A stretch of 32,000 nt of DNA from Candidatus Saccharimonadota bacterium (GTDB lineage: Bacteria; Patescibacteriota; Gracilibacteria; BD1-5; UBA2023), in the NCBI GenBank assembly GCA_046350815.1, contig JAXLZO010000001.1, positions 1,050,001-1,082,000 of the forward strand, read 5' to 3'. Positions 2,931 to 27,001 of this stretch are shown piece after piece. Numbering within the stretch: position 1 is the first letter of the stretch; each line of letters starts with the position of its first letter. The notes below the pieces were generated by a model. The model had not been told where the DNA came from and made no database searches. It saw only the letters and a program-made list of their open reading frames with translations. Position numbers and translations under genes: made by a program.

Positions 2931-4106
2931 CTATCCACCAATATTCTGAGAAAGATTCATAATAGGCTGCAGTACCGAGAGAGCAACACCGCCAACAACA
3001 ACCGCCATGAATACAAGAATAATTGGCTCAATGATCTTCGAAATGCCAGCAATTTGGAGATCTACCTCTTCATCGTAGAAAGTAGCGATTTTTACCACCA
3101 CCTTTTCAAGCTCTGCCGTCTCCTCTCCAACCTGTATCATGGAAGCAAGCATATCAGGAATCATCGGATCATCAGCGACACTGTCAGCAAGCTTGATACC
3201 ACGCTTGACATCCTCAGCCATGAGGAGAATTCTTTGCTTGTAACGTTCATTACCAACTGCAAAAGCCGAGATTTTAAGTGACTCAACCACCGTAACACCT
3301 GATCCGAGAAGATTGGAGAAAAGACGACAAAATTTTGAGAGAGCAACTTTTCGAATAATTTTTCCAAAGCCCAGTGGAATCTCAAGCATGATACTATCGA
3401 GAATGTATGCACCATTTCGAGTATTGTGATAAATTTTGAGCATAGCAATACCAATAATAACCGAGAGAATCATTGCGATCCAGTACGACTGAAAAAAATG
3501 TGAAATATTGATCAGAGTCTGAGTTGATGATGGAAGAGCTTGCCCCTCAAAAAGAGTCATGAGTTTTGGAATAACCACTGTCATGAGCACACCTACTGCA
3601 AGAAACATAACAGCAATGATCGTCATGGGATAAGTAAGTGCTCATTTCACCTTGCGAGTAATAGACGCCACCTTTTCTACTTGATCAGCAAGCTGCAAAA
3701 GGGCGCTATTGAGACGACCAGTCTTTTCGCCAGATTCAATGAGCGCGAGCTCTGTCTCGCCAAAGGTGTGTGGATAGAGCTCAAGAGCAGCAGAAAATGG
3801 AAGCCCTTGGCGAATCGATCCAAGAACCGATGCAATGAGCATCTTTGCTTTTTTGCTTTTCTCTTGCTTTTCAAGAATAGAAAGAGATCGCATAAGCGGA
3901 ATACCCGCATTCACCATAGTTGCAAGGAGGCGGTAGAATGCAACCTTCTGAGAAACATTCAGAAGTGAATTCCGAGGAAGCATTGCTTTAAGCACATCGA
4001 TAAAATCATGTTCTCGTGGAGCCTGCGTATCACCACTTTTATCTCGATCGATAATAATGAGTCCGTCATCGAGAGGTGTCTCAGATGTATTTGAAATATT
4101 TGGCAT
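2931..4106 (-). CDS. pilC: Type IV pilus / type II secretion platform protein (GspF/PilC family)
   Basis: Track ORFs 3642-4106 and 2931-3626 are in one frame, joined across TGA 3639-3641 (...RKVK-G-ALTYPM...). Duplicated GspF-type repeats and three hydrophobic segments give 391 aa. It lies immediately downstream of the ATPase. Confidence 0.9.
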
Positions 4107-4117
4107 AAAAATAGAAA

Positions 4118-5383
4118 TTAGTTTCCTTCTTTCGCAGCAGCATACACTTCTTCAAGCGAGGTATGTCAGAGAAGTGCTTTGATGATACCATCTTGTTCGA
4201 GTGAGATCATACCATCATCGATAGCGCGTTCATTAATCATCGTTGCACTTGCACCCGAGAGAATCAACTCTTTAATAGGAAGTGTGATTTCAAGAATCTC
4301 ATATATACCAACTCGCCCAAGATATCCAGTATGGTTACACTGATCACATCATGCAGCCTCGTAGAATTCAGAACGAGCGAGTATTTCTGGAGAAACACGA
4401 TCGATAAGCTCTTGTTTATCCGTTCGAGCAATAGCTCTCTTAAGGGAAGCTTGCATCGTTTGTGGTAATGTATCAGCTTTGATAGGCTTTCGACAGTTCT
4501 TACAGAGCCGACGAACCAGTCTTTGAGCAATAATTGCATTGATAGCAGCAGGAAGAAGAAATGGCTGTATTCCCATGTTCAGAATACGAGTCAATGTCTC
4601 AGCAGCAGAATTCGTATGGATCGTTGAGAGTACCAGATGACCCGTAAGAGCTGCCTCAATAGCAATATTGATCGTCTCATGATCACGAATCTCACCTACC
4701 ATGATAATATCAGGGTCCTGACGAAGCGCAGTACGAAGAGCACCAGCGAATGTATATCAGATGTCTGGAAAAATTTGTGATTGATTTACTCCATCGATCA
4801 CATTTTCAACTGGATCTTCGATCGTCATGATATTTACATCTTCATGATTGAGTGATGTGAGACAAGAATAAAGTGTGGTCGACTTACCAGATCAAGTTGG
4901 TCATGAGGTAAGAATAATTCCATTTGGAAGCCCGATCGCCTTTTGAAGCAATCTACCATTCTTTCCTTCGATTCCAAGATCTGAGATACTTGGAATTTTT
5001 TTGCTCTTATCTACGATACGCATTACAATCTTCTCACCATGCACGGTTGGAAGAGTCGAAACACGAAGATCAAGCGATTTATCCGGAAGAGTAATAGAAA
5101 TACGTCCATCCTGTGGCATGCGTGATTCATCAATCTTGAGATTTGCAAGAATTTTATAACGTGCGACAATCTGAGAATGGAGAAACTGTTGGTATTCGAT
5201 CGCTTCATAGAGAACTCCATCAATGCGATAACGAATACGAACAAATCCAGAAAGTGGCTCAACATGAATATCTGAAGCTTTCATAACCGCCGCAGCATTG
5301 ATAACAAGGTTACAAATAATTTGCGTATTCTCTCATTTGTATATTTCAGCAGAGAGTTCTTTGAGGAGTGGATGAGAAAGCAT
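4118..5383 (-). CDS. pilB: Type IV pilus assembly ATPase (GspE/PilB family, short form)
   Basis: One frame from ATG 5383 to TAA 4120-4118 with six in-frame TGAs. Motifs: ASDIHVEP, Walker A GPTGSGKST (both underlined Gly encoded by TGA at 4901-4903 and 4892-4894), [25 protein letters not shown], and the tetracysteine CKNC...CDQC motif. Confidence 0.92.
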
Positions 5384-5418
5384 AGAACAAAAAGATGGAA
5401 GAAATATGCAAATGAATT

Positions 5419-6513
5419 TTACTGAAAAGAATCGATAGTAGATTCAATCCGAAGCGAAAGAGAATTAAGAGATCGGGATGCTTCAGAAATTCGAATATCA
5501 AGAGATGTTTCTGCAAGACCGGATGGGGCAATAGAAATACTCTGAATTTGTCCATCAATTGAAGTAAGTTCTCGTTCAAATGCACTCAAAGAAGCGAGCC
5601 TTGGACCATCCTCTTTATTCTTCTTCATCGCGTCTGTAATTCTTGTATGAATATCGTGCGATCGCTCTTTCAATCGAGAGAGAAAATCACCATATTGAGC
5701 AGCACTTGGAGATCGAAGATAGAGCGAAAGTTGAAGTGTAGCGGTAATCTCACTATCGTCATCTACTCGAGGAATTTCACTTGGTACAAATCACGTAATA
5801 CGAACAAGTGGGCTTGAGAGAATTGCTTTAGGTTCAAGAGAAGATGATCAAGTAGAAGAACTAATACTCGGGAGAACTCCTGCAGTATTGATAAATTGTA
5901 CAAATTCATATACATCTTTACTGAGACCTCGAATTTCAAGATTTACCGGAAGGGTAATAACATTTTTAATACCACCGGTTGCACTCACTATCTGCATACC
6001 ATCAAAGCCAATATTCGAAGTCGATTGAAGATGATGTTTTGAGAGCCAATTCACTTCAATAAGACGAACATAGTCCGTGAGAGTAAGTTCCCCAGCCCCT
6101 AATGAAGTAGGTGAAATAATTGGAATAATCGATGTAATAAGTTCCTCTCGACGAGATATTTCAGAGAGAATATCATTTGATTCATATCGCTTTATTTCAT
6201 CTAAAATCCATGTTGCATAAGGCGATGTGATACCTGTTGGCTTAACAATAGTAGATGTAAAACGAGATCGATCACTCGAATCAAGATGCGCAAGAGATGC
6301 AAACGTATTGATATCATCTCTCGTCGGACCATCGTTAGTCAATTTATCCAATCGATCCTTGAGATCATTTGCTGATTGTATTTCGAGAGCGAGAGCACTT
6401 CGTTTTGGAATTATGTAACTATAGAGAACTCCTGAGAGAAGAACGATGACTAAAAATGAAATAATAATCGTTTGTGCCTGTGCTTTTTTGGGGGATATTT
6501 CTTTCATATTCAA
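5419..6513 (-). CDS. Bitopic membrane protein of the pilus operon (PilO/PilN-like position, no recognisable domain)
   Basis: Track ORFs 5848-6513 and 5419-5673 share a frame and are joined through TGA 5848-5850 and TGA 5791-5793, ending at TAA 5421-5419. N-terminal TM helix IIISFLVIVLLSGVLYSYII. The start may be TTG 6513 or ATG 6507. Confidence 0.6.
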
Positions 6514-6518
6514 ATAAA

Positions 6519-7361
6519 TTAAGGCATGAGAAGTGGAAGTGCTTGCAATTCAAGATCAAGGTGAGACTGAGTTCCACCCTCCTTGAGTAACTCAAAAGAA
6601 ACATTTTTTGGAGGATTTTTCAATCGAAACAGAGATACAGGAGATTCAATAGAGTCAATGAAATCGAGTGCAGCAACACGTGAGTTCATAAAAGAATTAT
6701 CAGTCGTCAGCTTATAGGGAGAGGAAATATCACACGATCATTTTAATTGCCCATCATCAGAAAGACTTACAATTTTACAACTATACTTCATACGCTGCGA
6801 TTCGCTCTTCCCAAGATTTTCAACGCTTTGTGATTTGTTCTTCACAAGATCTTCAAATGCTTTGATCATATCGAATACATTGTATCGATTTTGTGTATTT
6901 GATTTGATAAACACAACTTCTGGATTTTTATCAAAAAATTCTACCAATCAACGCCTATAAGCAAAGGTTGAGATCTGAGAATCATATTGTGTAAGAAGTG
7001 CTTGAGTATCTCATCGATATTTTTCCTGAAGTCATACAACACTCAGATTACCTGCGTTGGATTCCCCATGAACACCAAGAGCCATATAATTTGCAAGACT
7101 GGACGGTATGAAACTTGGAGTTACCGAACTCGAACGAACAAACACATCAAATGCAAGGAGTGCTATAATTACAACAGCGAGGCTTGCAAAGACATGTGAA
7201 ATAGTGGCAATGAGAGCCATGCGACTCGTATGTTTTTTAGGCAGTGCACCAGAACCATGTGAGAGTTCTTGAGAGAGCTCGGAAAATGGGTTCTTATCAT
7301 CCAAAACAGCACCCGCGCCAGAGGATGGTGGATTTTGATTTGGGATAGTAGTATTCTCCAT
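6519..7361 (-). CDS. Bitopic membrane protein, first gene of the pilus operon (hypothetical)
   Basis: ATG 7361. Track ORFs 7032-7361 and 6738-6947 are joined through in-frame TGAs at 7032-7034, 7011-7013, 6948-6950 and 6738-6740. TAA at 6521-6519. TM helix MALIATISHVFASLAVVIIALLAFDVFV after a Gly/Ser/Pro-rich N-terminus. Confidence 0.6.
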
Positions 7362-7404
7362 AAGATAAGAATAGATAGAAATTAAATCAATACCATACTA
7401 TCAC

Positions 7405-7444
7405 ACAAAATAAAAAAATACCGTAATTTTCTATTGCGGTATTT
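7405..7444 (-). terminator. Rho-independent terminator of dinG
   Basis: Stem AAATACCG (7416-7423) pairs with CGGTATTT (7437-7444). A minus-strand T-run TTTTTTATTTT follows. The dinG stop codon (7431-7433) sits in the loop. Confidence 0.6.
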
Positions 7445-10223
7445 CTATTTTCTGTTTTGATAATTTTTTTTCTCGATAAAGATCAAGAAAAGATCGAGAA
7501 GAAACATGATGAATCTTGAGTCAAGTTGGAAGAGCATCAGCAAGACGAGCCCCCCATGAAGTCGTCACCAACCGATCATCAAATATAATAATTACACCCG
7601 TATCTTGAGGAGATCTGATGAGTCGCCCTATTCCCTGTCGAAGTTTGAGAATCATTTCCGGAATAGCATATTCAGCAAATGGGTCGCTATATTCAGCAGA
7701 CCGAGCTATATAGATAGGATCTGTGGGGACGAGAAATGGAAGCTTGAATATCGAGAGAAGAGAAAGCCCATCTCATGAGATATCAATTCCTTCCCAGAAA
7801 GCATCTGTACCAAAAAGAGCACTCCCATGAGCATTATTTCGGAAAGATTCAAGAATTTTTTTTCGCGAACCATTTCACTGAGAATAAAGCTCGATTCCAC
7901 TTGCCTTGAGGCGCTGTTTCACGGCTTGACTCGCCTCTCGAACCTGATCGTACGAAGTGAAAAGACCGAGCGTTCGGCCATGATTGATCTCGATTGCTTC
8001 ACCAAGTATCTCATAAGCCCTTTCGCGTGCTATGACCGACTTGATATTCGATATGTCAGATGGGATCAGCACCACCGCCTGACGGCTGTAATCAAAAATT
8101 TCACTATATTGAAGTTGACGTACTCACACCATACCAAGACGATTGCAGATGTAATCAAAATTTCCATTGATAGCAAGTGTTGCTGAAACACCAATAACAA
8201 CACCAACATCTTGAATATAGGATTGAAGATGTTCGGAGATACGAATCGGTGCATAGGATAATAACACTTGATCTCTGCGTTGATTGATCGATCTCACTAC
8301 ACCTGGACTCGCATTAAAATACATCTGAAGAAATGTGATACCATCATGGAATGTTCGCTGAATCATTTGGGTAAATCGGAGAGATTTCCCCTCAAGAAGT
8401 GTGTCAATCGCCTGTACATGGCTTGAGAGTGATGAGAGGAGAAATGATTTTTGGCGGAAAGTATCATCTGAGAGGATATTCGCATCAACATAGACCTCGT
8501 AGGTTTTTCCCCTCCCATATCCCCCACCTTGATCGCGACCAAGCGAATTACTGATTTTTTCATGATCAAGTAGGAGCGATACGAGCATTTCCATCTCGAG
8601 AAGCGTACTCTCACTATGTCGAACAAAATCATCAAATACTTCTCGTCCAAGTTTGACCTCGAAATCACTACGTCTCGATGCAAAACGGTCACATAATTTC
8701 TTGATAGATTCAATATCGAATCGAGCAGTCATCACACTCGTGATCGAGGACTCAAGAGCATGAGTCTCATCAACAATAAGCGCTCCAACATGTGGCATAA
8801 TACGATTCATAATATCCGACTCGATCTCCGTTGCGAGGAGAGAATGGTTGATCACGATAATATGAGCTTGTGCAGCTCTCTCACGAGCACATACAATCGG
8901 CTCGAGATCAAAATAAGGATTAGATTGAGAGAGTGTTTGTGGATGCGATGCATTGAGAGTTGAGAGGAGTGTCATATCACTCGCATACCAATTCATAGCA
9001 TCAATATCACCGATGGGATCATCATGAATTATTCGAAGCATACGCATCATGAGTATGGCATCTCGAAGAGAATAATGAGATTCTTCGAGTGCGTCGATCA
9101 CCCCAACAAGCGATACATAGTTCGATCGCCCTTTGAGAAGGGTATATGAGAGATCAATATCTGCACCTTTTGCTATAGTTGCGAGTCGAGGAAGATCTTT
9201 TTCAAAGAGTTGATCTTGGAGTGCTTTTGTACGAGTAGATATAGCTATATGACCCTTGGTAGTGTTCGTATAAGCAATAGATGGGAGGAGATAACCGAAA
9301 GTTTTTCCAATACCTGTTGGTGCCTCAATCAAGATCGATGTTTTACTTTCAAGGCAAGAGAGTATCTCTTGTTGCATTTCTCTCTGTGTTGGTCGTGGCT
9401 CCATACCACTCTTTTCATCAAATATTTTGGTCAAATGCTGAAATACATGCTGTGCACTTTCGTCACTTCTCGCATCTTCGTTTTCTTGCTCAATAATAGA
9501 TGCTTCAAAATCAGAAATTGGAAGTACTTTTTCTCTCGCTGCCAAGATAGATTCTCGAATATTATCATAACTTGCAAGCTCGAGAGAGCGAGCATTTTCA
9601 AAAAACTGTCGAAATGGATGCCTAGTATCAAGACGGGAGAGTATATAACTATACCATGTCCAGAGAGTTGTTGGTACTCATTCAATTTCTCATTCAAATT
9701 TTGCGAGCAAATCAAGGCTCGCAGCAGCATCACTCCAAGCACGATGTGCATCGGTATGAGTGATCTCATAATATTCCGAGAGTGTTGTGAGTGAAAGTGA
9801 TGCAAGATGTGGTGGTGCGAGAACCTGAGCTAAAGTGAAAGTATCGAGCTCCGTAGTGTTAGCAAGAATTGCAATCGTCTCATCTCCATCGGAAGATCTT
9901 CTCAATCCATTAGACGCAAGAAATTCGGTATCAAAACGAATATTATGGCCAACAATACAGGCCCCATCAATACGATCAGCAACATCATTGATAATCTCTT
10001 GAATATCAGGAGCATCATCCACCTCTGCCTGAGTAATTCCTGTGATATCAATAATTTCTTGAGTGAGTGGTTGCTCTGCATGGACAACTGTTGTATAGAT
10101 CTCGCGCTCAGCTCACGGGATGGGAGTAACAATACCAATCTCGATAATCTCATGATTACGATGATCGAGACCTGTTGTTTCAAGATCCAGACCTACATAG
10201 CGAATCTGCTGTAATGATGCCAT
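7431..10223 (-). CDS. dinG: DinG-family ATP-dependent helicase fused to an N-terminal DnaQ-like 3'-5' exonuclease domain (930 aa)
   Basis: Single frame from ATG 10223 to TAG 7433-7431, joining track ORFs 9690-10022, 8124-9545 and 7875-8075 through in-frame TGAs. Exonuclease motifs are GLDLETTGLD, GHNIRFD and HRAWSDA. Helicase motifs are EAPTGIGKT and IVDETHAL, plus the C-terminal RLIRS...G.. region. Confidence 0.9.
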
Positions 10224-10308
10224 ATTTTTTGGCTACTATAAGGAGGAGCTGGGAGAATGCAAAACAAAGAGTATTGAAAGGATAGAATCGTCTGTATTTT
10301 GCATAATT

Positions 10309-10461
10309 CCCCTCTTGAGTTTTGGTGAAAGCCGGGTTGGATATCTTGAAATCAAGAGATAATAAAATCCTCGTCATTTCGAACAAGGTGAGAGATCCCT
10401 TATACAAGATATTCTCACTGAACTTGACGTACAAGAGATCTCTCGTTCTATTCGAGATGAC
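10309..10461 (+). repeat. Copy A of the repeated intergenic element (5' motif plus arm-core-arm module)
   Basis: CCCCTCTTGAG (10309-10319) and GGGTTGG. Arms GTCATTTCGAACA (10373-10385) and TATTCGAGATGAC (10449-10461) flank a core at 10392-10426 that matches 22924-22958 at 34 of 35 positions. Confidence 0.6.
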
Positions 10462-10520
10462 ACCAAGACAGGAAAAAAGTAGATCCTCATCTTCATGGGA
10501 ATGACAGATAATTTTATGTC

Positions 10521-10540
10521 ATCCTCGCGGAGGCGGGGAT
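10521..10540 (+). repeat. GC-rich hairpin repeat (copy 1)
   Basis: ATCCTCGC-GGAG-GCGGGGAT forms an 8-bp stem including one G-U pair. With its flanks (ATGTCATCC...GGGGATCT) it is near-identical to the hairpin at 26885-26904. Confidence 0.6.
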
Positions 10541-10589
10541 CTCATGATAGATGGCAGATCTCAAATTACAACATAAACACATACGATCC

Positions 10590-11750
10590 CTACGCCGCTT
10601 TTTGATATCACTGAAGCTCTTTGAATCGAATAATCAGAGGATTCGACTGAATATAGGGACGAATGTCGCGATAATCTTTACCGTATTTATCTGCGATATT
10701 TTCTATACTAGTTGGAACTTGATCCCAATAATCAAGTGGCTTTGCCGTTAACAACCCACCATCAACTTGTTGTGTTGGTATACCATGAGAATTGAGTGGT
10801 GAATCTTTGAAAACAATATTCTCAATCCACATAAGATCTGGATTATCAGCTGCATGTGCAAAGGTAATCTCTATAGGTTTTCCATTCCAATACGTCTTAC
10901 CAATGATGGTTTCAACACGCTTCAAATGTTCATGAGTCATATCTGGTCACTTACGAAATCATCAGCGAAAATTCATATCAAATTTTGGATCGATAGGGAT
11001 CGAGCTCATTTTTTGTTTCACATCTCCAATCGAAAGTCACTTATCTAAATCCCCAAATGAATCTGCGTTTTGATACAACTTTGTTGATTGAAACTCATGT
11101 TTATATCGTTTTCTAAGATTCTCCATTCAAGACTTATCTACATTTGTAACTCACATTTGTGCTTTCCATATTTTAAGTAAATTTGTATTATTACTATAAT
11201 CCTTAGGAATATCATCAAACATTTTACTTAACTGCGAATCAACGACCGTCCCTTTTTCATATGATAAACCAAATTCACCCTGTCCTTTAGAAATAATATA
11301 GCTACCATCACCCTGAAGCAATACTCATTGAGAACAATGCCAATTTCCTCAACTTTGCGAAAAGTAAAACCATCGTGGTTCATATACTCAATTTACTTTT
11401 GTATATCAAAGAATTGTTTTACGGGCTCAAAATGCACTCGATACAAAAAATTCTCTTCATTCAATCACTATTTTATATTTTGGTTCCAAGCCAGGAGTAT
11501 TACGAAAGATCTTCTCTGCATCTCTTGAGAGCTCACCACGAGGAAAACTCGCGGGATCGATTTCTGTCATTCGAGCTTTTCATATGTTCACTTCCTTATT
11601 TTTTTCTGGTGCTTGCTGATTATTTTGATTTTGCTCGTTTTTTTGTTTCCCACTCTGTTCTTGTTTCTGATCTAATGATTTTTTCTCTCAATTTTTTATC
11701 AATTTTTCAGCCTCGACCGATGGTACATATCCTTCCATCGATATATCTTT
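10590..11750 (-). pseudogene. 3' portion of a roughly 1059-codon glycine-zipper/unknown-function protein gene interrupted by IS1595
   Basis: The frame is open (UGA=Gly) from the IS boundary to TAG 10592-10590 and contains track ORF 10608-10940. It is in phase with the 5' portion only after removal of the IS plus one 7-bp duplication. Confidence 0.75.
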
Positions 11751-12503
11751 GGGTCTAAACCAGTTACGGGTTATATTGACGAAGTAACTTTAGCACTTCC
11801 TTATAAATATCTTTTCATTGAATACGACAATTATATCTGAATTCAGATTCTTTCAAAAAATAGTAGAAGTAGACTTTCTTGATTCCATTGAATTGAGAGA
11901 GTCTTCTTTTGGTATAACTCCAAAATGACTCTATTCAATTAATGTGTTGAGTTCATCTTGCAAATTCATTTGCTCCGTGATGAACACGGTAGTGTTTCTC
12001 ATATCCAATATCTACAAGCCCATCATAAGCTCACCATCCATCACTGTTAATCTCAGACTCTTCTATACGAAGTTTTCATCGAATGATTGGCACGAGAGTC
12101 CTTGCTTTTACATCAGGAACTATCTCAGTATATACTTTTCAGTTTCTTTTGAGTAAACCAAAGACTATTGTCTTCATACCAGCTCACCTTCCTCTCTTTC
12201 ATCGGACTCTTGTTGGTCAGAAGTAACTCTCATCTATCTCAACATTTCCAGTCCATATTTCATTCTTTTCTCTCTCACAGAGAAAGGCTATCGCCTTTCT
12301 GATATATCTATACCAATCCTGTGTTGTTTTTGGATTGAGACCTGTTAATACCGCTGTTTTATCTGAAGTAAAATCCAGAGAAAAATATTTCACAATTTCT
12401 CTTATTTTTGCATCTCAAATTCGTGATTTTTTCCTATAGGTAGTTTTACTGATCATAGAGCCAAGTTTATGGGATAATTTATCCTGTCAACTGGTTTAGA
12501 CCC
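11751..12503 (-). mobile_element. IS1595-family insertion sequence (753 bp), intact
   Basis: Perfect 15-bp terminal inverted repeats GGGTCTAAACCAGTT (11751-11765, and 12489-12503 reverse-complemented), imperfectly extendable to about 25 bp. Flanked by the 7-bp direct repeat TATCTTT (11744-11750 and 12504-12510). Carries a single DDE transposase gene. Confidence 0.9.
11764..12456 (-). CDS. IS1595 (ISXO2-like) DDE transposase, 230 aa
   Basis: ATG 12456 and TAA 11766-11764. It is invisible in the track because of 10 in-frame TGAs, all at Gly positions of the family consensus: VEIDESYFGP..RGKRGRGAG, FGLLKRNGKV, INSDGWGAYDGL, HYRVHHG..EFARGTQHINGIESFWSY.KRRL, LKESEFRYN. Confidence 0.9.
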
Positions 12504-14529
12504 TATCTTTTTGCATCCGAATCACTCCGTTCTTATCTTTCCACGATACATCCCAGAGACCTGTTTGTTCATTCCACCGCTCCAGTCGTACTTTTCCGAT
12601 AGACCCATCACCAAGTCGATAATTGATCATCTGTCATTTTACAAAGAGTCCATCAACTGGAAAGAATCTTTGGCGAATTTGCACAATCTTCTCTGTCATT
12701 TTGAGAGAAACACCACTTGAGAGATGAACACTATTCTTGAGGCTCAAACCAAGATCATCGAGAAATTGTTTAAGTTTTGTGATTGGGATAGATTTCATAT
12801 CTCCGAGAAATTCCTTCAACTGCACAAGTTTTTCTCAGATATCTTTTGACCAATCGATAACATCTCAGTTATTTATGATTTGATTTTCACCAACATCTCA
12901 AAGAGTATTCACAACTTCATCAATCGTTTCAACGGTTTGACCATCCAAATATTTGTCTGGATTCTGTTGAAATCGATCACAATCTTTGAGAATCTTATCA
13001 AATTGTTCTGGATTTTTTGATGCAAGTGCTCGTTGCAATTCTCGATAGAGACGATCAGCCTCATCTCCTATTTCACGCCCACGAGGTCAGAGTTCGGAGA
13101 GTGGACGATGAGCACTATAGTTCGTCATCATTGCAAAGATTCGTGATTGTATTTCACGAGCATGCGGATCATGAATCAAGCGTTGATCTGGAAACATAAG
13201 ACGATTATGTGTGTCAAAATAGGTATCTGCTTTTTTGAGAAGAGCTTCTACCTGTTGCATATTACCAGCATTCTCAGTTGCAATCAGATCTTTTCGCATT
13301 TGGAGGAGCATCTTAGCAATATCTGGATTCAATGTACTTTCTTTTGATCACACTGCGAGTAATCGAGCGGACATTTCAGAAATTCGTTGATTCAACGCTT
13401 CAGGAATACCATTTGTTGAGGTTGATTCTCCTTCTCGTATTTTTTTCTTTTTGAGGCGTTTTGCACCAAATACAAGATCACCTGTCTCACCAACTCCAAC
13501 TGCCAATGCTCACGTTTTTTCAAGTATCTTTCATCCAACCTTTTTAAGTTTTGTTGCTCATTCCGCTTTTTGGATTGTTGTACCGAGTGCTTCCATTCAC
13601 TTTCAGAATTTTGCAGCTCATTTGAGAACGATTCATCCACCAACAAGAGCACCGATGATGAGACCAGGAATTCGTCCGATCGCTTCAGCTTGCTCTCATT
13701 GAGGGAGAGTAGCGATTCGCTTCATTTCTTTCGAGATGGTATCACCGATGATCACACTTGCTTTCGTCCATGTTTCTCATTTCCAGGCATTCTCCGTGAT
13801 AAATCCACCAACACCAACCATGAATTTTGCAGTCGCATCACGAGTCGACTCTTGCGTTGCAAAATTATAGCAAAATATCGCAAGATCAGGTATGGATTTG
13901 ATCACCATCCAGACACTCTCAGTGACTCATTCTAGGACTCCTTTTGCACCATGAAGAGCATTGCTTGCACCATCTTTCCAATTCTCAGCTGAGCCAAGTG
14001 ATCGAGCAGTAGTTCCAGCCATTTCCCCAAAAGTTGGCACATTCAGAGTATCACCCAATATTCCCGATAAAGTACGAAGAGTAATATTCATTTCTGCTAC
14101 TTGATCTCGTGTGAAATGTCTCACTACTTTTGGCACAATACTGTCAATTTCCCGAAGCATAGCTGCAGCTTCTCTCTGAAGATTGCCAATCATACTCTCA
14201 TACGTCGATTGCACCGTTTCTCCACCAAAAACACCAACAATCTTGTCCATTCATTTCATCACAAGTCCTGTATCTTCTTTGTATTGTGCATTGAGAGTAT
14301 CGAATCGTTCTCTGATATTTGCAGCACGATTTCAAAAGCGCTTGATAATATTTTGATTGATAACAACACTATCAAGTGCTCCAAGTTGATTCTTGGTTAT
14401 TTCTTTGAGACGCTCGCTACCACCCACCATTTTTCTATCAATGGTTCAAGATTTTTTCTGCATGAGAATATCTTGTTTTATTGCAGGCTTATTTTTAGGT
14501 GCTTCTCATGATGATGCAATTTCAGGCAT
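12496..14529 (-). pseudogene. 5' portion of the IS-interrupted large protein gene (as it stands, a 677-aa truncated ORF ending 8 nt inside the IS)
   Basis: ATG 14529. It joins track ORFs 13927-14250, 13087-13332 and 12634-12825, all in one frame, through many TGAs. It reads ...IRMQKD then R-V-stop (TAA 12498-12496) inside the IS end. Contains a Gly-zipper segment IPGLIIGALVGGGIVLKGAAKFGKG. Confidence 0.75.
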
Positions 14530-14634: not shown

Positions 14635-15286
14635 GGAACACAACGATATGTCGTATATGTTGATCTGCCTCATCTTTATAAATATCAAGTGTATAGGTAT
14701 GATCCGCCTCGAGCGCAAATCCAAGTTGTTTGGCACGCCGGAGACCATTCGTCCATTCCTTTGCATCAGGAGTCTTATAGAGAATGAGCGATCCACCGAG
14801 CCTCAGAAGCGGTCGGGCATACTCAATCATAATATCCATCTGAGCGGTCGACCTCGAGACAATCGCATCAAAGTAAATCGGCTCTTCAAAGAGTTTATGA
14901 AATTCCTCAGCTCTCGCCTGAAATGCTTCGATATTCTGCAATCCAAGGTCTATCATGAAACGCTGACATGCTCGGATTTTCTTTCCAACACTATCAAGAA
15001 GCACCACATGAAGCTCAGGATCGACGATCGCAAGGGGTATTCCTGGAAATCACCCACCAGTACCTATATCGAGAACCATTCATGAGAACGTGACAAACTT
15101 TCTCACCATGAGCGAATCAATAAAATGCTTGAGTACTATATCCTCTGGCTCACGAATCGCTGAGAGATTTGTATGACTGTTGTATTCCACAAAGAGATCG
15201 AGAAATTGATGAAATTGATCAATAATTTGAGAATCAAACTTCATTCCATGTTCCAAAAATCGTTGCTCTATTTGTTCTCTATTCAT
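14618..15286 (-). CDS. rsmG: 16S rRNA (guanine527-N7)-methyltransferase RsmG (GidB)
   Basis: Track ORFs 15080-15286 and 14618-15007 share a frame and are joined by TGAs at 15080-15082 and 15050-15052. The second TGA completes the SAM-binding motif VLDIGTGGGFPGIPLAI. Confidence 0.88.
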
Positions 15287-15716
15287 CTTTGAGCGACTTA
15301 ACGGCTACTTTTGATCCTTCATAGGAGAGAAGTTCTACTTTCTCTCCTACCTCAAAATCATCACTTTCACCAAGAATAAGATATGAAACACCGTTGATAT
15401 CTATCGCCTTATCACCACGTGGAGTGAGATGAATATGAAATTTTTGACCTATAAATGCTTTCACACCAATAGGATACTCAATCGTTGGAAGTGTTTTTCG
15501 AAAAATCCGTGGAAATGCAACAAGAAGAATAATGGATATCACAAAGTAGAGCACTGCCTGAATAAGGCTAAAATTTTGCTCACCCGTATACCAGACATAT
15601 CCTGCCAAAATGAAAGATGAGAGAGAGAGAGCGAGACCAAAAAAAGCAGTTGTCACAAGCTCAATCATCAAAAATACACATCAGATAGCGAGGTATGCAA
15701 TAAGAACATCTGTCAT
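15279..15716 (-). CDS. NfeD-family membrane protein
   Basis: ATG 15716, three nt after the SPFH stop, with one in-frame TGA extending track ORF 15279-15671. Two or three N-terminal TM helices and a C-terminal OB-like NfeD domain (GEKVELLSYEGSKVAVK). This is the classic SPFH-NfeD gene pair. Confidence 0.75.
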
Positions 15717-15719
15717 ATA

Positions 15720-16592
15720 CTACTTTTGAAAAAATTTGGACAGATTACCGAGAAAATCAGTATCAAGAACATATTTTGTATTACCACCAGAGAGTGCGTC
15801 ACGCATTACAGAGAGTTGTTCTCTCGCTACGGCTTGCCCCTGAAAATACGCCTGTGCAGCCTGAGACTCAAGCTGGAGAGCTGTCGCACGAGCTTGTGCT
15901 ACAGCTACCTCTGCTTGAGCCTGCCCTTCTGCAAGAAGACGTTGTGATTCTTTCTCAGATTCTGCCTGAAGAATTTTTGCTTGTTTTTCGCCTTCAGCAC
16001 GAGTAATAAGAGCTTGTTTGTATCCTTCTGACTCGAGGATCGAAGCGCGTTTTTCACGTTCTGCCTTCATCTGCTTGGACATAGAGTCCTGGATATCTGT
16101 CGGAGGATCGAGGCGTTTGATTTCGACACGTGTCACCTTCACTCACCAAGCATTCGTCTCACGGTCGAGCGACTCAAGGAGACGAGCATTGATGATTTCT
16201 CGATTGGAGAGCGTATCATCAAGGCTCATCGTTCCAAGTACGGAGCGAAGATTCGTCTGAGCAAGATTCACTACTGCAAGATACACATTATTTATATTGT
16301 ACGTAGCTGCCTTTGGGTCATTGATCTGAATATAGACAATTCCATCAACCGTAACACCTACATTATCTTTAGTAATAATCTGCTGTTCTGGAACATCCAC
16401 AACCTGTTCACGGATATCTACACGACGGATCGTCTGAACATAAGGAATAAGAAAGTGAAGACCTGCATCGACCGTACCAGCGTATCTACCAAGCGTCTCC
16501 ACAAGACCGAGAGAACCTTGATCAATTCTCTTAAAAGAACTCATCAGCGTAACAATGGCAATGAGGAAAACCAAAAATATAACAAAACTCAT
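15720..16592 (-). CDS. SPFH/band-7 (stomatin-like) protein
   Basis: Track ORFs 16143-16592 and 15720-16142 are contiguous in one frame across TGA 16143-16145 (...[15 protein letters not shown], the conserved WG.kV motif). N-terminal TM helix, SPFH core and a Glu/Ala/Gln-rich coiled-coil tail. Confidence 0.88.
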
Positions 16593-16646
16593 ATTTGAAA
16601 AAATCAGAAATTAAATACAGTAGCATCAATAGTGTATGCAAATCAC

Positions 16647-17636
16647 ATGAAAAATACAACTCCTTTGCGTAAAAATATTGTGAGGATTGGGTGAGGAAAT
16701 AGTGCTGATGCAGTGCTTGCTTGACTCAAAAAATATCATGACCTCAATATTGCGGCAATTGTTACTATGGCAGACAGTGGTGGATCGAGTGGCAAGCTTC
16801 GTGAAGAATTTGGGACACTTCCAGCATGAGATGTCAGACGGGCAGTGGTCGCGCTCTCGCGAGATGAATCTCTCGTGAGAGCACTCTTTGAGCATCGTTT
16901 CGAGTGAAATGGAACGCTGAGTGGACATACACTTGGCAATCTCATACTCACAGGGATGGAACAAATCTATGGCAATCTTCAGACAGCCATAGACCGAATG
17001 GGTGAACTCTTTCGTCTCGATGGTAAGGTCATACCCTCAACGCTCTCCAATGTTCATCTACGTGCAACCATGGAAGATGGTACTATTATTAATGGCGAAA
17101 CCAATATTGACGTCCCGAATAGAGACCCGAGACTTGCTATCACCAATCTTGAACTTATAGGAGATGCAAAACTCAATCCTCAAGCACAAGACGTGATAGA
17201 GCACGCAGACTATATTATTCTCGGTCCTGGTGATCTCTATACCTCACTTCTCCCCAATCTCCTTATACCAGGAATGTGCGAAGCAATAGCAAAAAGCAGT
17301 GCACGAGTCATCCTCATGGTCAATCTCATGACCAAACCGGGCGAAACATATGGATTTCATGTTGATGATTTTATAAGAATCATTGAAAAATATCTCTGAG
17401 TCAATATTATAGATTCAATACTCGTCAATAATAATCTTGATTTTCCGAGTGATCAACTTCAAAGATACAAAGATGGCTTACAGGAGCCAATCATTATCAA
17501 AGATAAAGAGTCACTCCTAAAACAAGGTTACCAAATAGTTGAGCGCGACCTGCGATCATACGAATCAGACGCACGACATGATATTGTCAAAGTTACAAGA
17601 ATTCTTCGAGATTTTATCGATGGATGGATCAAATAA
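16647..17636 (+). CDS. yvcK: YvcK/CofD-family protein (UPF0052, gluconeogenesis factor-like)
   Basis: ATG 16647 to TAA 17634-17636, extending track ORF 16956-17399 at both ends through TGAs. Motifs: IVRIGGGNS (TGA 16692-16694), [27 protein letters not shown] and LSGHTLGNL. Confidence 0.85.
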
Positions 17637-19568: not shown

Positions 19569-20150
19569 ATGAATATCAGAAATCTATTTCCGAATAAATA
19601 TCGGACGTCGTTCACTATTGGAATTTTCCTCGCACTTCCAGTTCTTATGGCTGGTACGTGGTTTTTGTGACGTGAGTTATTTTTTGATCACTGGAAAAAG
19701 TCAGTGAAAAAAACTCCACCGGCACAAACTATAACGAAAGAATCAGTGAATCAGCTCAATCAAATAACAAAATGAGGGAATAAATCAGACTGTGGATCGA
19801 TCAATAATAGTTATCTCAAAAATAGTTGTTACGATCAATTCACTCTGAGTGAAGCTCGAAAATCACCGAGTCAAGCAGAAGAAATATGTAAAACTATGCG
19901 CGAATGATTTCGTGTAAATGAATGTTTATCAAGTGTAAATATGGGTAAAGCCCTGGGTACCACTTGAACTATTCCATCTTCAGGTTGTGAAACACTTCCA
20001 GATATTCTCATGCAAGCATCGTGTATCGATGAGAAGGAAACAGTGGCACTAAGCAAAGAACGCTCAAAATGAGTAGTTCATAAAGAATTTTGTGATTCTC
20101 TTCTCAATGAGAGAATTCAGAAGGCTTGTTTCTCCTACGTATCACCATAA
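19569..20150 (+). CDS. Membrane-anchored cysteine-repeat protein (193 aa), hypothetical
   Basis: ATG 19569 to TAA 20148-20150 with five in-frame TGAs. N-terminal TM helix FTIGIFLALPVLMAGTWFL, then four C-x11-C units spaced roughly 30 residues apart. Its stop lies 7 nt before the next gene. Confidence 0.6.
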
Positions 20151-20157
20151 AGATCTT

Positions 20158-22695
20158 ATGAAACATATACTTGGATCGCTCTTGATATTTCTCTGTTTTG
20201 GATTTTTTAGTCTCCAAACAGTATGAGCATCTCCAAGTAGTCCGGATTATGGTGAGAGTATTCCATGATGACCAAGTGCATGAGTTTATACGCTTACTGG
20301 GACATTGAACAGTAATGAACTGGGGAGGATATATATATCTGCAACTTGAGCATCAAGATGACTCTTCTATGATAAAAACTCATACGGTCTTACAGGTAGC
20401 ATTTATTCAACAGGAATTGGACTCATCGAAATTACCAGTCTTAATAATCCATCATTCGTAAGTGGAGTGAAAGTATGTGACGGGCAAGATCTTGCAAGTA
20501 TAACAGTAGATTGCAATATTACCTGATCAGGGGGATGAGTAATCACTCTCTACAGTCCAGCTATCGGAACTCTTACTGGATCAGTAAGTGGAAAAGTAGA
20601 CTCCTTTACAAAAGAGATCAAAAATCTTACCTTTACCAATATTGGTTTTTGAACACCAATACTATCGCTCTCAGGTATCAATCTTGTACCAAAAGCAACC
20701 AATCTCACATGATGAGACTTTGGAACAGGAGTATACTATACAAATCACTCAGGAAGTATTCAGATATTCAACGATGGCACACTCTCAAGTAATACAAAAT
20801 CTATCAGACTCACACCAACAACGCTCAGTGGATCGATAACCAATATCATCAAAGATTATTCTACTACAACAGATACTTTCATATGAGTAGATATCTCTAT
20901 TGCTGGAAACTACCTCTATGAAATGAATATAGACGGCGTGATTTCCCGTGGACTCATCAAAGTAATTGCAAGTGAAGTGGGGACTACACTTTATTCAACA
21001 AGTACAACTTTTTTCAAACAATACTGTTTCGATAATAAAACAGATACATCAACCAACTATCAAAGTACGTGTCCAGAGAAGGATAGTCTCAAAGCAAGTA
21101 AAGTAAAGTCTGATTCGAGCATAAAACAGGCAAACAATAATGACAAGAATCCAATCATATTAAGCCTAAGGGATCAATATGGAAATAGAATATCAAGCAT
21201 TCCGCTTTATCTTGCAATAGATGTCAAAAGAACTCTGAAGAATGGACAACTCTTAAAAATAGATATCCCGAACGAGCTAAGATGAATTACTCCTGTAGCA
21301 TTACCAGGACTTGATGGGCTGAGGATTCCGCAATCAGACTGGAGCGGTACAACTTCATCACCAATAAATTATCCAGATTATGCAATGGAATCAGACAAAG
21401 ATCTTCTCATAGAACTTTTCTCATCAGCATCATGAAGCTTACAAGTAGAATGGAAAGCAAAAACTCGAAATATCTTTGGTTGATCATCTACTGATATTGG
21501 ATCAGAAACAACCCTATCAACATGAGATATCACTTTCGAATGACTTATAAAAACGAATAGCTTCATTATAAGCCCAACCAACCCTATTCTCCGCAACCGA
21601 GAATCAGTCTTTTCTCATCAATACACGATCTCTGACTCGGGAAGCATAGTAAATCCTCATCTCGAGTACATCATCACAACCTCAAGTGGTGAGATCGTTG
21701 ATCGTATAAGATCAATAGCTACAAACACTTGTGAAGGTTATACAAATACAGGCGGAACAAGCAAACCAACTGACGACTGTAAAGCGAGAAATGAAACTAC
21801 AGTTGATCATCTTGATACCCTCTTCTGAACAGATATTCCAAAAACGAATAGTGGGACAATCGATATAGGTCTCACATTCGCGACCGGAGCGATGACAAGT
21901 ACTGGAACTAATACTGGATATCTTATTGTGATGGCTTCATATGATATTGTTTGAGTGTGAACTATTCGCTATCCTCTCGTAAAGCAACCATTCAATACGG
22001 CAGAATCCACTGGCACTATTCCACTCAAGATCCTCGGACAAATCGGAAGCAGTGATCTTGGTACGAGCATAAAATCCCTCGATCTCCTCTCATCAAATCT
22101 CCTCAACACCGAGCGAGACAAAATCCGAAAACAAGCACAAATGATGAGGCAGAATTTTGTAAATCATCCACTGATTGTTGGCTCATTAACGGATATACCA
22201 AACCAAGTTTATATCGTCGAATGAGATATATATATCAATGCTGATATTTGGCCGCCCACTCCACAAAAACCAAAAGTACTGATTGCACTGAAAAAATCGG
22301 ATGGTACAGGTGGTAATATCTGGATTAATCCAAGTGTAAAAGATATTATTGCGTCACTTATTGCTGATGGATCAATATTTAGTGGTACATGACCATCAAG
22401 CTACCACACTCCTGCAACAACGGATAATCAACTCTATATTCTGGGAAGTATTATGAGTAACAATACCATTGGATGATTCGGGCTTGGTCGATGTCCAAGA
22501 AATGCTATAGGATGTACAGAATGATGATCTGGTAATTCCTGAAACTACGATTTCGAAAAAATGAGATGATTCGATAATACTGATTCTTCGAAAAAATCCT
22601 CATGAACAACAGAAACTGCCTCATTTGTTATCGAACACGATCCTCGCCTCGTACGGGACTCCCCTCTTGTGCTTATGCGAGATCTCACGAGATAG
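20158..22695 (+). CDS. Large secreted/surface protein (845 aa), hypothetical
   Basis: ATG 20158 to TAG 22693-22695 in one frame, with roughly 28 in-frame TGAs and no TAA or TAG. Only a 120-aa piece (20923-21285) is visible in the track. Signal peptide MKHILGSLLIFLCFGFFSLQTV. The sequence is Thr/Ser/Gly/Asn-rich and beta-rich. Confidence 0.8.
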
Positions 22696-23172: not shown

Positions 23173-25800
23173 ATGTACAAGAAAATTCTTTCATTCGTAT
23201 CTATCTTGGTATTGCTTCTCAGCAACACCTCATATTTATGGGCGCAAGGGCTCGTGGAAGATTCACAAATTACAAAAGAAAATATCAGCACCAAAAAAGA
23301 AATCTGAGAGCAAGAGAGGAAGGTTTCCATCGATCAGATCAAGTCAACACCGCTTGCTGATCTCATAGAGGAGTGAGAAATCACAACCAAACCAAGCGAA
23401 GAGATATCAGGAGATAAACTCATCCTTCCCAATGGAATGAAACTCAAAGGCATAGTAAAGGGTGGAAAAATTGAAGCAAAAATAGCACCAGAAACAAGTA
23501 TCGACATTGCCGGGAGTAGTGATGCTATCAAGACAAGTGACATAGGTATTACTCCCGTGAGCAAGGATGAAGAACAAAAAGCAATCAACGACGCATCGAA
23601 TGAGTCGAATGTAAGTTTTTTTGATACCCTACAATCATTGATCCTCCCAACAGCGAACGCTGCCGAAGCAAAAGCAAAACCAAATAACCAGTTTACCTTT
23701 GAGCTTGGAACAAAGTGAAAGCATCTCATTTTTAGTAAGCCAGTCGAAGTCAAAGTACGAACACCGTATGTTGATGGACAAAAATTTCGAATTCGAGTAC
23801 GTCATGCAAATGATAAAAACTATAATACTTCAGGACTCACACTCAATGCAAATGCAACGTGTGATAAAAAAGGATGAGTTTCCAATGAATCAAATATTGC
23901 TTATGCAAAAGATGGATATATCACCTTCTATACCTGCTGAGCATCATCATTCACAATTAATACGAGTGGAGGTACAACCGTGAATAATGGACTCAAAGTT
24001 GTCGTCGGAGATTGTGCTCAAACACAGATCACCTATATTAATAATGCTCAGGTATATGGCGGTGCTGTACCATGATCTGGATGTGGTACGCCATCATCAT
24101 GGCCAGCGCTTCGTATAGGAACTACAACCTATGCAAATGCTATCGGAACATCATTCACATCAGCAAATACTCGCGGTTATCAAAATGGTACGACCTATAC
24201 AGCTATCACAGATATCAATGTACTCCATACCAATGGGCTCTACTATAACCTCAAAATAGACTGGAACTACAATGCGCCAGATGATTTTTTTACCTGGAAA
24301 TGGACGATTAATATTCCAAGTGGAAATACCGATACAGTAAAATTCTACTATGCTATGGATTCATTCATTGGATGAGATGATGCTGGCGATGCAGGCTTCT
24401 ACGATGTATCTACTCAAAAAGTAGGAATTTGGGACTCTACCGACAAAATTGCAAATACCTTTCGAGTCACAAGTGGTCTCCCTCTCACCGCATATGAAGT
24501 AAAATGATATGCAACTATCAATAGCGATACCGCAAGTGGATTAGACTATGACAACTCACTTGCAGGAGCGGCTGATAATGGTCTTGGTTTGCAATGGACA
24601 GTCTGATCAACCCCTGGTGAATACAGTGCTACCAATGAGTGGGCATACATACCGTACGGCAGCTCTGGAACACCCGATCTACAGACAAGACTATCATGAC
24701 CAACAGCAACATTTGTAGTCAATCAAGAATCTACTATCACAGCAACCGCATATAATGCCGCATCTGGAAATTCGAATGGCAATAAAAGAATTCGATTTAC
24801 ACTTCCAGTGTGATTTACTGGATCAAGCATTGCAATGACAAACAATGGATGGTCCTGCGCAGCATTCGTACCAGCAACACGAATTGTTGACTGTACAAAA
24901 AATTTTACTCTCACAGGAAATACATCAGATACTGTCACTATTCCACTCACTCCATGAGTGACAACTGGGGGGACCAATGTTACCTATACAGCAGCTATTG
25001 CGCGTCTAAGCGGATCCACCGATAGCCCAAATAACAATAACACAGCATCACGAGTCGAACCAGTATCATCAACGGTACTCGATACAACTGCCCCAACTTT
25101 TACTTCTGTCTCAGTTGCTGATAATAAACTCATTGGTGGTGGAACATTTAATGTTGTATATGGATATTCTGATAATATAGCCATCAATTCATGAAGCATT
25201 CAATGATCACTCTACAAATGGAATGTGGCTACAAGTAGTTATATTCTCTATACACCCTCTACAGCCCTCACATTTACTGGGACAACACTCACTGGAACAA
25301 CTGCCAAAATAACAGGTATACCCATGTGAAAATACCGTCTCGATACAACTATCGTCGATACGAGCAACAATCAAACAACCAATAGTCGAACACTCTATAT
25401 TGATGCCCTTCTGATGAATGTATCCGCAGACACCTATGATATCGACAATGTAAGTATGTCACCACCAGCATTGGAGCAAATCATCACGGTATCGACTGTA
25501 TGAGCAGCGTTTACTATCAAAATCAATGGAACAACCCTCACAGCATGAGCCGATAGTATTGCAACCTACAGTGGCAGTACGTGATGGGGATACCACACCG
25601 AGAGTGGAGGAATTTACACCCTTACACCGATAGCACCATCAGGTGGCACTGTCTACAGCCAGTGAGCTTCAATCAACACAAATGGAGAATACAATATCTA
25701 TACATTCAAATTAAAATACAGCGGGGTTGTCAATGATGAACAAGCAATTGGTGACTATACTGGAAGCCTCAGTGTCACAGTTACAGGCGATTACCCATAA
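23173..25800 (+). CDS. Large secreted surface protein (875 aa) with a DUF11-like 'conserved repeat' domain
   Basis: ATG 23173 to TAA 25798-25800 in one frame, with roughly 19 in-frame TGAs. It contains track ORFs 23437-23718 and 24958-25194. Signal peptide MYKKILSFVSILVLLLSNTSYLWAQG. The segment TATAYNAASG...FTLPVGFTGSS...GWSC....VDCT..FTLTGN.SDTVTIPLTPG...TYTAAI....DSPNNNNTAS fits the DUF11/TIGR01451 pattern. Confidence 0.8.
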
Positions 25801-26775: not shown

Positions 26776-26863
26776 GGAGAGGTCGCATAGTGGCCTAGTG
26801 CGCACGCTTGGAAAGCGTGTATACCGCAAGGTATCGGGGGTTCGAATCCCCCTCTCTCCGCCA
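26776..26863 (+). tRNA. tRNA-Ser (anticodon GGA), CCA encoded
   Basis: Cloverleaf by eye: acceptor GGAGAGG/TCTCTCC, anticodon stem CACGC/GCGTG with loop TTGGAAA, long variable arm TATACCGCAAGGTATC, T-arm GGGGG-TTCGAAT-CCCCC, then discriminator G and CCA. Confidence 0.9.
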
Positions 26864-26913: not shown

Positions 26914-27001
26914 GGAGGGGTGCTAGAGTGGTTGAATAGGCTGGTCTCGAAAACCAGTATGGCGAAAGTCATCGTGGGTTCGAATCCCATCTCCTCCGCC
27001 A
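26914..27001 (+). tRNA. tRNA-Ser (anticodon CGA), CCA encoded
   Basis: Acceptor GGAGGGG/CTCCTCC, anticodon stem CTGGT/ACCAG with loop CTCGAAA, long variable arm TATGGCGAAAGTCATC, T-arm GTGGG-TTCGAAT-CCCAT, then G and CCA. Confidence 0.9.

Follow-up and report, generated by a model that had tools for sequence, protein, structure and literature searches.

A complete insertion sequence (IS) of the IS1595 family, IS1016 group, lies in minus-strand orientation at positions 11751–12503 of the window, by which we mean the whole 32,000-nucleotide stretch of DNA analysed here (contig JAXLZO010000001.1, positions 1,050,001–1,082,000), from a Gracilibacteria genome written in genetic code 25, where UGA stands for glycine. 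The element is 753 bp long and is bounded by terminal inverted repeats that are complementary at 15 of 15 positions (GGGTCTAAACCAGTT). The left, transposase-proximal repeat occupies 12489–12503 (minus strand) and has the same terminus in all related copies, and the right, transposase-distal repeat occupies 11751–11765 (plus strand), its inner edge being overlapped by the TAA stop codon of the transposase (11764–11766). This pair is the strongest inverted repeat found in 11500–12800, and the 15-mer has no further occurrence in the window beyond the two ends of the element. Both arms are directly abutted by the heptamer TATCTTT (AAAGATA in the sense of the interrupted gene), at 11744–11750 and at 12504–12510, forming a 7-bp target duplication. 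An earlier annotation made from the letters of the DNA, which we call the sequence-only reading, had described the length, the perfect repeats and the duplication, and all three are confirmed.

The element interrupts a single gene that runs in the same orientation. Deletion in silico of 11751–12510, the IS together with one copy of the duplication, yields one minus-strand open reading frame (ORF) of 3180 nt (2026 nt plus 1154 nt), encoding 1059 amino acids followed by TAG and containing 35 TGA codons, and its junction reads ...RMQKD-I-SMEGYV..., exactly as had been calculated before. The 5' part of the gene (12504–14529, minus strand), which is matched by P0122 and by an orthologue on six metagenome contigs (L001–L006), comprises codons 1–675 and the first base of codon 676. 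The 3' part (10590–11743, minus strand), which is covered without interruption by P0121, comprises the last two bases of codon 676, codons 677–1059 and the TAG. Both halves are open, with no TAA or TAG stop and no frameshift. In its interrupted state the 5' ORF runs two codons into the IS (...QKD-RV-stop, with the stop at 12496–12498), and an in-frame ATG (11736–11738, MEGYV...) lies 12 nt downstream of the end of the IS, from which a C-terminal fragment of the target protein could in principle be made. The insertion had been called reversible; removing the IS and one repeat does restore the frame, and the word holds in this formal sense only.

Long spurious ORFs are common in a window where only TAA and TAG serve as stops, and the restored 1059-aa protein has no significant sequence match in Pfam or PDB. 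Both points would favour the view that the two flanks do not belong to one gene and that the restored ORF is a by-product of low stop density under code 25. We give this view practically no probability and regard it as effectively refuted. A search with the restored protein returned two relatives only, and both are continuous over the junction. The first, P0121, covers residues 407–1059 without interruption at 88% raw identity, many of its mismatches being Trp for Gly that come from a table-4 reading of TGA, and its junction reads ...IRIQKDISMEGYIPS... / ...GVIRIQKDISMEGYIPS...; the second, P0122, is 75% identical and reads ...IQKDVSMENYVPS... at the same place. The flanks are therefore related parts found in the same homologues, and the clean insertion into one gene proposed by the sequence-only reading stands. 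The order of the gene with a DinG-like helicase, T2SSE and T2SSF is also conserved. In addition, the ratio of nonsynonymous to synonymous substitutions (dN/dS; Nei-Gojobori under code 25, window gene against the L001–L006 orthologue) is 0.27 in the N-terminal segment, 0.26 just upstream of the junction and 0.20 downstream of it, indicating a genuine protein-coding gene of which neither half is relaxed. The gene is lineage-specific. Two faint hits to the target protein were set aside, DUF3160 with 15.7 bits, under its cutoff, and YeaZ with an E-value of 0.16, which is not significant.

The position of the IS within the target gene may be noted separately. P0122 resembles the N-terminal part of the protein (75% identity over about 600 aligned residues) as far as a point about 20 residues beyond the insertion. 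The stretch of about 370 aa that follows in P0122 is unrelated to the C-terminus of the target, and neither C-terminus has a match in Pfam or PDB. The IS thus sits almost exactly at the domain boundary of the target. Judging from these alignments, the target combines an N-terminal body that is conserved with a C-terminus that can be exchanged, which recalls the layout of polymorphic toxins.

The sequence-only reading had suggested looking for an empty-site allele in related metagenomes, and one was found on L001–L006, which are ENA contigs of the ERZ7245xx series that encode P0121. These contigs are syntenic with the window over the DinG-like helicase, two small ORFs, T2SSE and T2SSF, and their lineage is 6–17% divergent from the window in DNA. 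Window positions 2932–11750 align with L001 13838–5118 and window positions 12504–13544 with L001 5124–4084, so that the two BLAST segments overlap by exactly 7 bp. This overlap (L001 5118–5124) is the lone AAAGATA of the empty site, the sequence that is present twice around the IS in the window.

The empty site also bears on whether the insertion could be an artefact, in which an assembler threaded a multicopy repeat into an uninterrupted gene. The IS is indeed multicopy in related populations, and on short-read contigs its two flanks often do not match. However, a false join made by an assembler would not yield a perfect 7-bp duplication of the very sequence that occurs once at the orthologous empty site, and a 7-bp duplication is also what the family produces at no fewer than seven other sites. 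The length of the source contig (1.28 Mb) further suggests an assembly of high contiguity. We consider an artefact very improbable.

In L001 the orthologue of the target is itself split, at 2984–4083, by a different IS of 1100 bp, and the same holds for L002–L006. This second element has 24-bp perfect repeats (GGCTTAATAGTCAAAACTCTGTGG) and an 8-bp duplication (AAAAAGTT), and encodes an N-terminal zinc-ribbon/helix-turn-helix part followed by a DDE part in another frame; the match of the DDE part to Pfam Transposase_mut is marginal (21.3 bits, cutoff 21). At the corresponding position (around 13540) the window has no insertion, and each lineage accordingly provides the empty site of the other. 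The target gene appears to be dispensable, or else to be hit repeatedly by ISs. The window was searched for a second copy of the 753-bp IS, for fragments of it and for the 1100-bp IS of L001, and none was found.

Between its ends the 753-bp element holds a single ORF, the transposase gene (11764–12456, minus strand), which encodes 230 aa, ends in TAA and contains ten in-frame TGA codons, at residues 14, 80, 86, 91, 106, 127, 142, 168, 174 and 214; reading the minus-strand ORF confirms the DDE transposase and the codon count given previously. The sole Pfam match of the protein is DDE_Tnp_IS1595 (PF12762), with 95.2 bits against a cutoff of 27, over residues 70–209 and profile positions 4–153 of 153. 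The assignment to the IS1595 family in the sequence-only reading was correct and can be narrowed further to the IS1016 group. The zinc ribbon PF12760 was not found in the Pfam search, and the N-terminal 69 residues have no Cys or His pairs; IS1016 is the sole group of the family that lacks the N-terminal Zn_Tnp_IS1595 zinc ribbon (PMC8101967). Residues D75, D139, E176 and K183 are invariant in an alignment of the transposase with 20 homologues (21 sequences), and K183 stands seven residues after E176, giving the D-D-E-K motif of the IS1595 family. The published IS1016-type signature, E-DESYFG(~53)xxxD----Y(~24)HINGIExFWSxxK(14)..KExEFRxN (PMC12561309), is present here as VEIDESYFG, 55 residues, INSDGWGAY, 26 residues, HINGIESFWSYTK, 14 residues and YYFLKESEFRYN.

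IS1016 elements measure about 0.7 kb and have short perfect repeats that begin with GGG, with duplications of 7–9 bp in AT-rich targets (PMC12561309). The repeats of the present element likewise start with GGG. Target duplications in the IS1595 family at large are usually 8 bp; here the duplication is 7 bp, and this length recurs at eight or more independent insertions of the lineage of the element. The targets of this lineage are AT-rich (AAAGATA, TAAGATA, TATTTTT, TTGTTGA, TAAAATA and others), which fits the IS1016 group. Sequence search found no relative of the transposase in PDB. Its nearest annotated relatives in PLSDB (ISAcra1-like, Francisella and Trichlorobacter) reach at most 54% amino acid identity, and the element would therefore count as new by usual IS-naming practice. 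The transposase is under strong purifying selection, with dN/dS of 0.05 against an 89% identical relative and 0.07 against an 82% identical one.

A candidate promoter for the transposase gene can be read at 12464–12490 (minus strand). It consists of TTGACA at 12485–12490, which takes in the inner two bases of the left repeat, and TAAACT at 12464–12469, with a 15-nt spacer between them. The ATG of the transposase lies 7 nt downstream of TAAACT, and it is possible that transcription from this site would give a near-leaderless mRNA. A scan with the sigma-70 consensus returned promoter-like sites that were no more numerous than in shuffled controls, and it did not report the TTGACA/TAAACT pair because of the 15-nt spacer.

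Element and host are written in the same code. Of the ten TGA codons of the transposase, seven fall on the 15 conserved glycine columns that were scored, at each of which 52–60 of the 60 homologues without in-frame TGA have G; at the same columns the window transposase and its close relatives have TGA (W in table-4 calls). For the host, the T2SSE-like ATPase (4118–5383, minus strand) has the Walker A motif S-[TGA]-P-T-[TGA]-S-G-K-S, in which two glycines are written as TGA, a short proof from within the window that UGA means Gly in this host. Each of the 22 ORFs tallied stops at TAA or TAG, which is not independent evidence, as ORFs were called with those stops only. Under the standard code the transposase gene would give only a 13-residue peptide, since its first TGA is codon 14.

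The use of TGA differs among the genes of the window. Taken over 21 host ORFs, TGA accounts for 22% of the Gly codons; its share is 35% in the target gene and reaches 50% in the transposase. The share is 0% in a NusA-like gene (29209–30276) and in a 377-aa ORF (1551–2684), and 4–13% in T2SSF, DnaB and the DinG-like gene; it is 22% in a large ORF at 23173–25800, and 32–35% in the target gene and the large lineage-specific ORFs at 14955–17636 and 20107–22695. The pattern points to an avoidance of TGA in genes that are conserved or highly expressed. Further marks of a code-25 host are a tRNA-Gly with anticodon UCA and the loss of release factor 2; the tRNA genes of the window are two tandem tRNA-Ser only, with GGA and CGA anticodons (26776–26863 and 26914–27001, plus strand). 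In public protein collections (P0001–P0031 and others) the code-25 transposases appear in table-4 translation, in which each TGA has become Trp. This spelling depresses identity, that of P0001 being 91% raw and 95% after Trp-to-Gly correction, and family alignments built from such translations would be misled.

Many other sites carry copies of the element. At least 24 short metagenome contigs encode exactly this transposase, spelled according to table 4, and on the ten of them that were examined (L090–L099) the 753-bp element is 99.2–100% identical to that of the window and lies in flanks unrelated to it. A variant (P0002, 89% identical) occurs in at least three contexts, with the perfect 7-bp duplications TAAGATA, TATTTTT and TTGTTGA. 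Relatives were also scanned for in one genome per GTDB species. Of the whole window the IS alone was matched there, at 82%, which shows that the window is not part of a GTDB representative genome. The Gracilibacteria metagenome-assembled genome (MAG) MFD02832.bin.2.127 has three complete 753-bp copies and one partial copy; the complete ones are 82% identical to the copy in the window, each has its own perfect 7-bp duplication, and all encode one and the same 230-aa protein, in which TGA occurs 11 times. Many contigs from the ERZ7245xx samples in which the empty-site relative occurs stop 30–55 bp into the IS termini, as is typical of a repeat at which short-read assemblies break. The source contig itself (1,283,673 bp) encodes, according to cluster data, a second transposase that is 98% identical (MFO0764371.1, labelled by NCBI 'MAG: IS1595 family transposase [Candidatus Gracilibacteria bacterium]'), so that the source genome has at least two copies in total. 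Neither the window transposase in its Gly version nor its paralogue from the same genome (P0142) had an entry in the contig index.

Some further occurrences were seen on the way. The ERZ7245xx loci L029–L089 contain, in the same samples, two IS subfamilies that have an identical 15-bp terminus and diverge just inside it (GACAGGATAAATT... and GACGGTAATCCGTT...). IS termini were also found at the ends of contigs L019, L022 and L026 (CAZXUQ01, labelled 'Candidatus Peribacteria') and of L016 and L023 (JAVHPT01, 'Patescibacteria group'). Peribacteria are reported to use the standard code. Either the MAGs in question carry imprecise labels, or the IS family also occurs outside the code-25 clades.

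Taken together, the element is, with high probability, an intact, autonomous IS1016-group IS of a UGA=Gly lineage that inserted recently into codon 676 of a 1059-codon gene. Identical copies at different sites, the empty orthologous site and the transposase dN/dS of 0.05–0.07 are indirect evidence of transposition, and the element is probably still active. A different possibility is that the element is a dead relic, structurally intact and immobile because its transposase is inactive or not expressed, and that its insertion is old and fixed. The evidence for activity in the source genome is indirect, and the insertion could be as old as the split from the L001–L006 lineage, given the 6–17% divergence between the two. 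Against such a relic stand the full-length ORF with all catalytic and signature residues, the perfect repeats, the strong purifying selection on the transposase, the near-identical copies at other sites in other samples, and target halves that have acquired neither a TAA or TAG stop nor a frameshift. We regard a relic as improbable, if somewhat less so than an assembly artefact. That the insertion is recent and has not decayed, as the sequence-only reading had argued, is supported by the open halves, the dN/dS of about 0.2 on each side and the 99–100% identical copies elsewhere, although these do not allow it to be dated.

With this in mind, one may outline how the insertion arose. The transposase would bind the 15-bp ends and cut an AT-rich target with a 7-bp stagger; the ends of the element would then be joined to the target by strand transfer, and repair of the gaps would leave the 7-bp duplication. 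The route could be either cut-and-paste, as in the eukaryotic Merlin relatives, or copy-out. On the time-scale of sequence decay the insertion at codon 676 is recent, and it truncates the target product after residue 675 and two residues encoded by the IS. The element could presumably enter other code-25 cells and would be unable to establish outside them. The data show directly the anatomy of the element, its family, its multiple copies, the empty site in relatives, the TGA codons at conserved Gly positions and the division of its relatives by in-frame TGA. We infer the chemistry of transposition, from the family, and likewise that the element is active now, that it has the promoter described and how strongly the code acts as a barrier.

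Several observations weigh against this interpretation. Transposition and any polymorphism of the site in the source genome are judged from assembled sequence, not from reads or experiment. Where short-read contigs contain the whole IS, its flanks fail to match in about half of the cases (among them L092, L093, L095, L099, L045, L056, L061, L069, L070, L031/L084, L009 and L011), and L011 and L013 have a common right flank and different left flanks. These contigs are probably assembly chimeras, or else real IS-mediated rearrangements; they were excluded from the insertion-site counts, and counts of distinct sites drawn from them are soft. The ISfinder size range of the IS1016 group is about 700–745 bp, and at 753 bp the element exceeds its upper bound by 8 bp. 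Since the L001–L006 orthologue is also disrupted, by a different IS, the target gene may be dispensable and the insertion of little phenotypic consequence. Finally, the division of the family by code that is described below comes from the best 120 matches and an unrooted tree of 225 columns, and a wider sample could break it.

The transposase of the window was compared with its 120 best database matches. Of these 121 sequences, 61 (the window and 60 database sequences) have TGA at 3–15 of the 15 glycine columns and 60 have none, with no intermediates between the two kinds. A neighbour-joining tree (TGA-derived W converted to G, 225 columns, unrooted) separates TGA-bearing from TGA-free transposases perfectly, and the same split was recovered in 190 of 200 bootstraps. 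The TGA-bearing set is as diverse as the TGA-free set, down to 44% pairwise identity, and therefore represents an old radiation. It is possible, and we propose it tentatively, that the TGA-bearing transposases form a single old clan that has diversified wholly inside code-25 bacteria, and that between it and its standard-code sisters there has been no detectable exchange one way or the other. The sequence-only reading had stated that the IS must be native to code-25 hosts and confined to them. For the lineage such confinement is supported, as 60 of 60 database members have TGA at conserved Gly positions; the 'must' is something that we infer. The barrier is moreover one-way in principle, as a standard-code IS whose transposase ends in TAA or TAG could work in a code-25 host.

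Among known systems the element is closest in design to the IS1016 group, as represented by IS1016 of Neisseria and Haemophilus and by ISApl4 of A. pleuropneumoniae (PMC12561309). It shares with them one ORF of about 220–230 aa with DDE_Tnp_IS1595 and no zinc ribbon, the DESYFG...D(4)Y...HINGIExFWS..K...KExEFRxN signature, short perfect GGG repeats with duplications of 7–9 bp in AT-rich targets, and a multicopy state with frequent occurrence at contig breaks. ISApl4 is 712 bp long, with the repeat GGGGCTGTACTAGA and an 8-bp duplication, compared with 753 bp, GGGTCTAAACCAGTT and 7 bp here. What sets the present element apart from the group is that half of its Gly codons are TGA and that it is translatable only under code 25. 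The closest TGA-free relative among the matches listed is the 737-bp IS that encodes P0039 (metagenome contig L100), with 65% amino acid identity. It has the same architecture, the same GGGTCTA terminus (GGGTCTAGACAACTTAA) and a 7-bp duplication (TAAACAA), whereas it lacks in-frame TGA, can be read with table 11 and belongs to the TGA-free side of the tree split; its host would be Bacteroidota-like, judging from an adjoining Por_Secre_tail protein. ISAcra1 and the 'IS1595 family transposase' of Francisella tularensis in PLSDB are of the same family and of similar length, with alignments over 87–97% of the protein, but they are only 51–54% identical and belong to standard-code Gammaproteobacteria.

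More distant parallels exist outside the family. Phages of Gracilibacteria and Absconditabacteria that use code 25 read UGA as Gly just as their hosts do (Liu et al. 2023, PMC10746230) and are likewise mobile elements tied to their hosts by a common code, while some phages of the same hosts stay standard-code by avoiding TGA. In contrast to these phages, the element described here is a chromosomal insertion sequence, and its TGA-bearing relatives form one clan. Eukaryotic Merlin transposons, as far as they are described in PMC8101967 (citing Feschotte 2004), resemble it in having the DDE_Tnp_IS1595 domain, GG termini and no zinc ribbon, and differ in being eukaryotic, with longer terminal repeats and 8–9 bp duplications; the similarity is distant only. 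In the literature we found no prior description of insertion sequences or transposases with in-frame UGA in Gracilibacteria or Absconditabacteria. What are called 'insertion sequences' in the rRNA of the candidate phyla radiation (CPR; PMC11270868) are a different thing.

The insertion itself is an ordinary event written in an unusual code, and it involves no new mechanism. The sequence-only reading had presented it as a useful marker of how a recoded genome insulates its mobilome. This overstates its significance, since phages that share code 25 with their hosts are known (PMC10746230) and NCBI already annotates the paralogue as IS1595. What the locus offers is a clean, documented insertion in an uncultured CPR bacterium of code 25, with filled site, empty site, duplication and multicopy relatives. 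It also offers a defined IS, with its ends, target length and transposase, for the annotation of Gracilibacteria genomes, where its practical value is modest: gene callers that use table 11 or table 4 shred or mistranslate such genes, and the database copies have Trp at Gly positions.

The split between TGA-bearing and TGA-free transposases is the sole part of the finding that has wider interest, and in this respect the claim of a marker retains some merit. The split provides a small, ready dataset on how strongly codon reassignment isolates a mobilome, a question that has so far been addressed mostly in phages and in engineered strains. If the single-clan proposal is true, this IS family would be a natural and quantifiable case in which codon reassignment acts as a long-term firewall on the simplest of mobile elements, and the share of TGA among Gly codons, 50% in the transposase as against 22% in the host ORFs, would mark the speed of lock-in.

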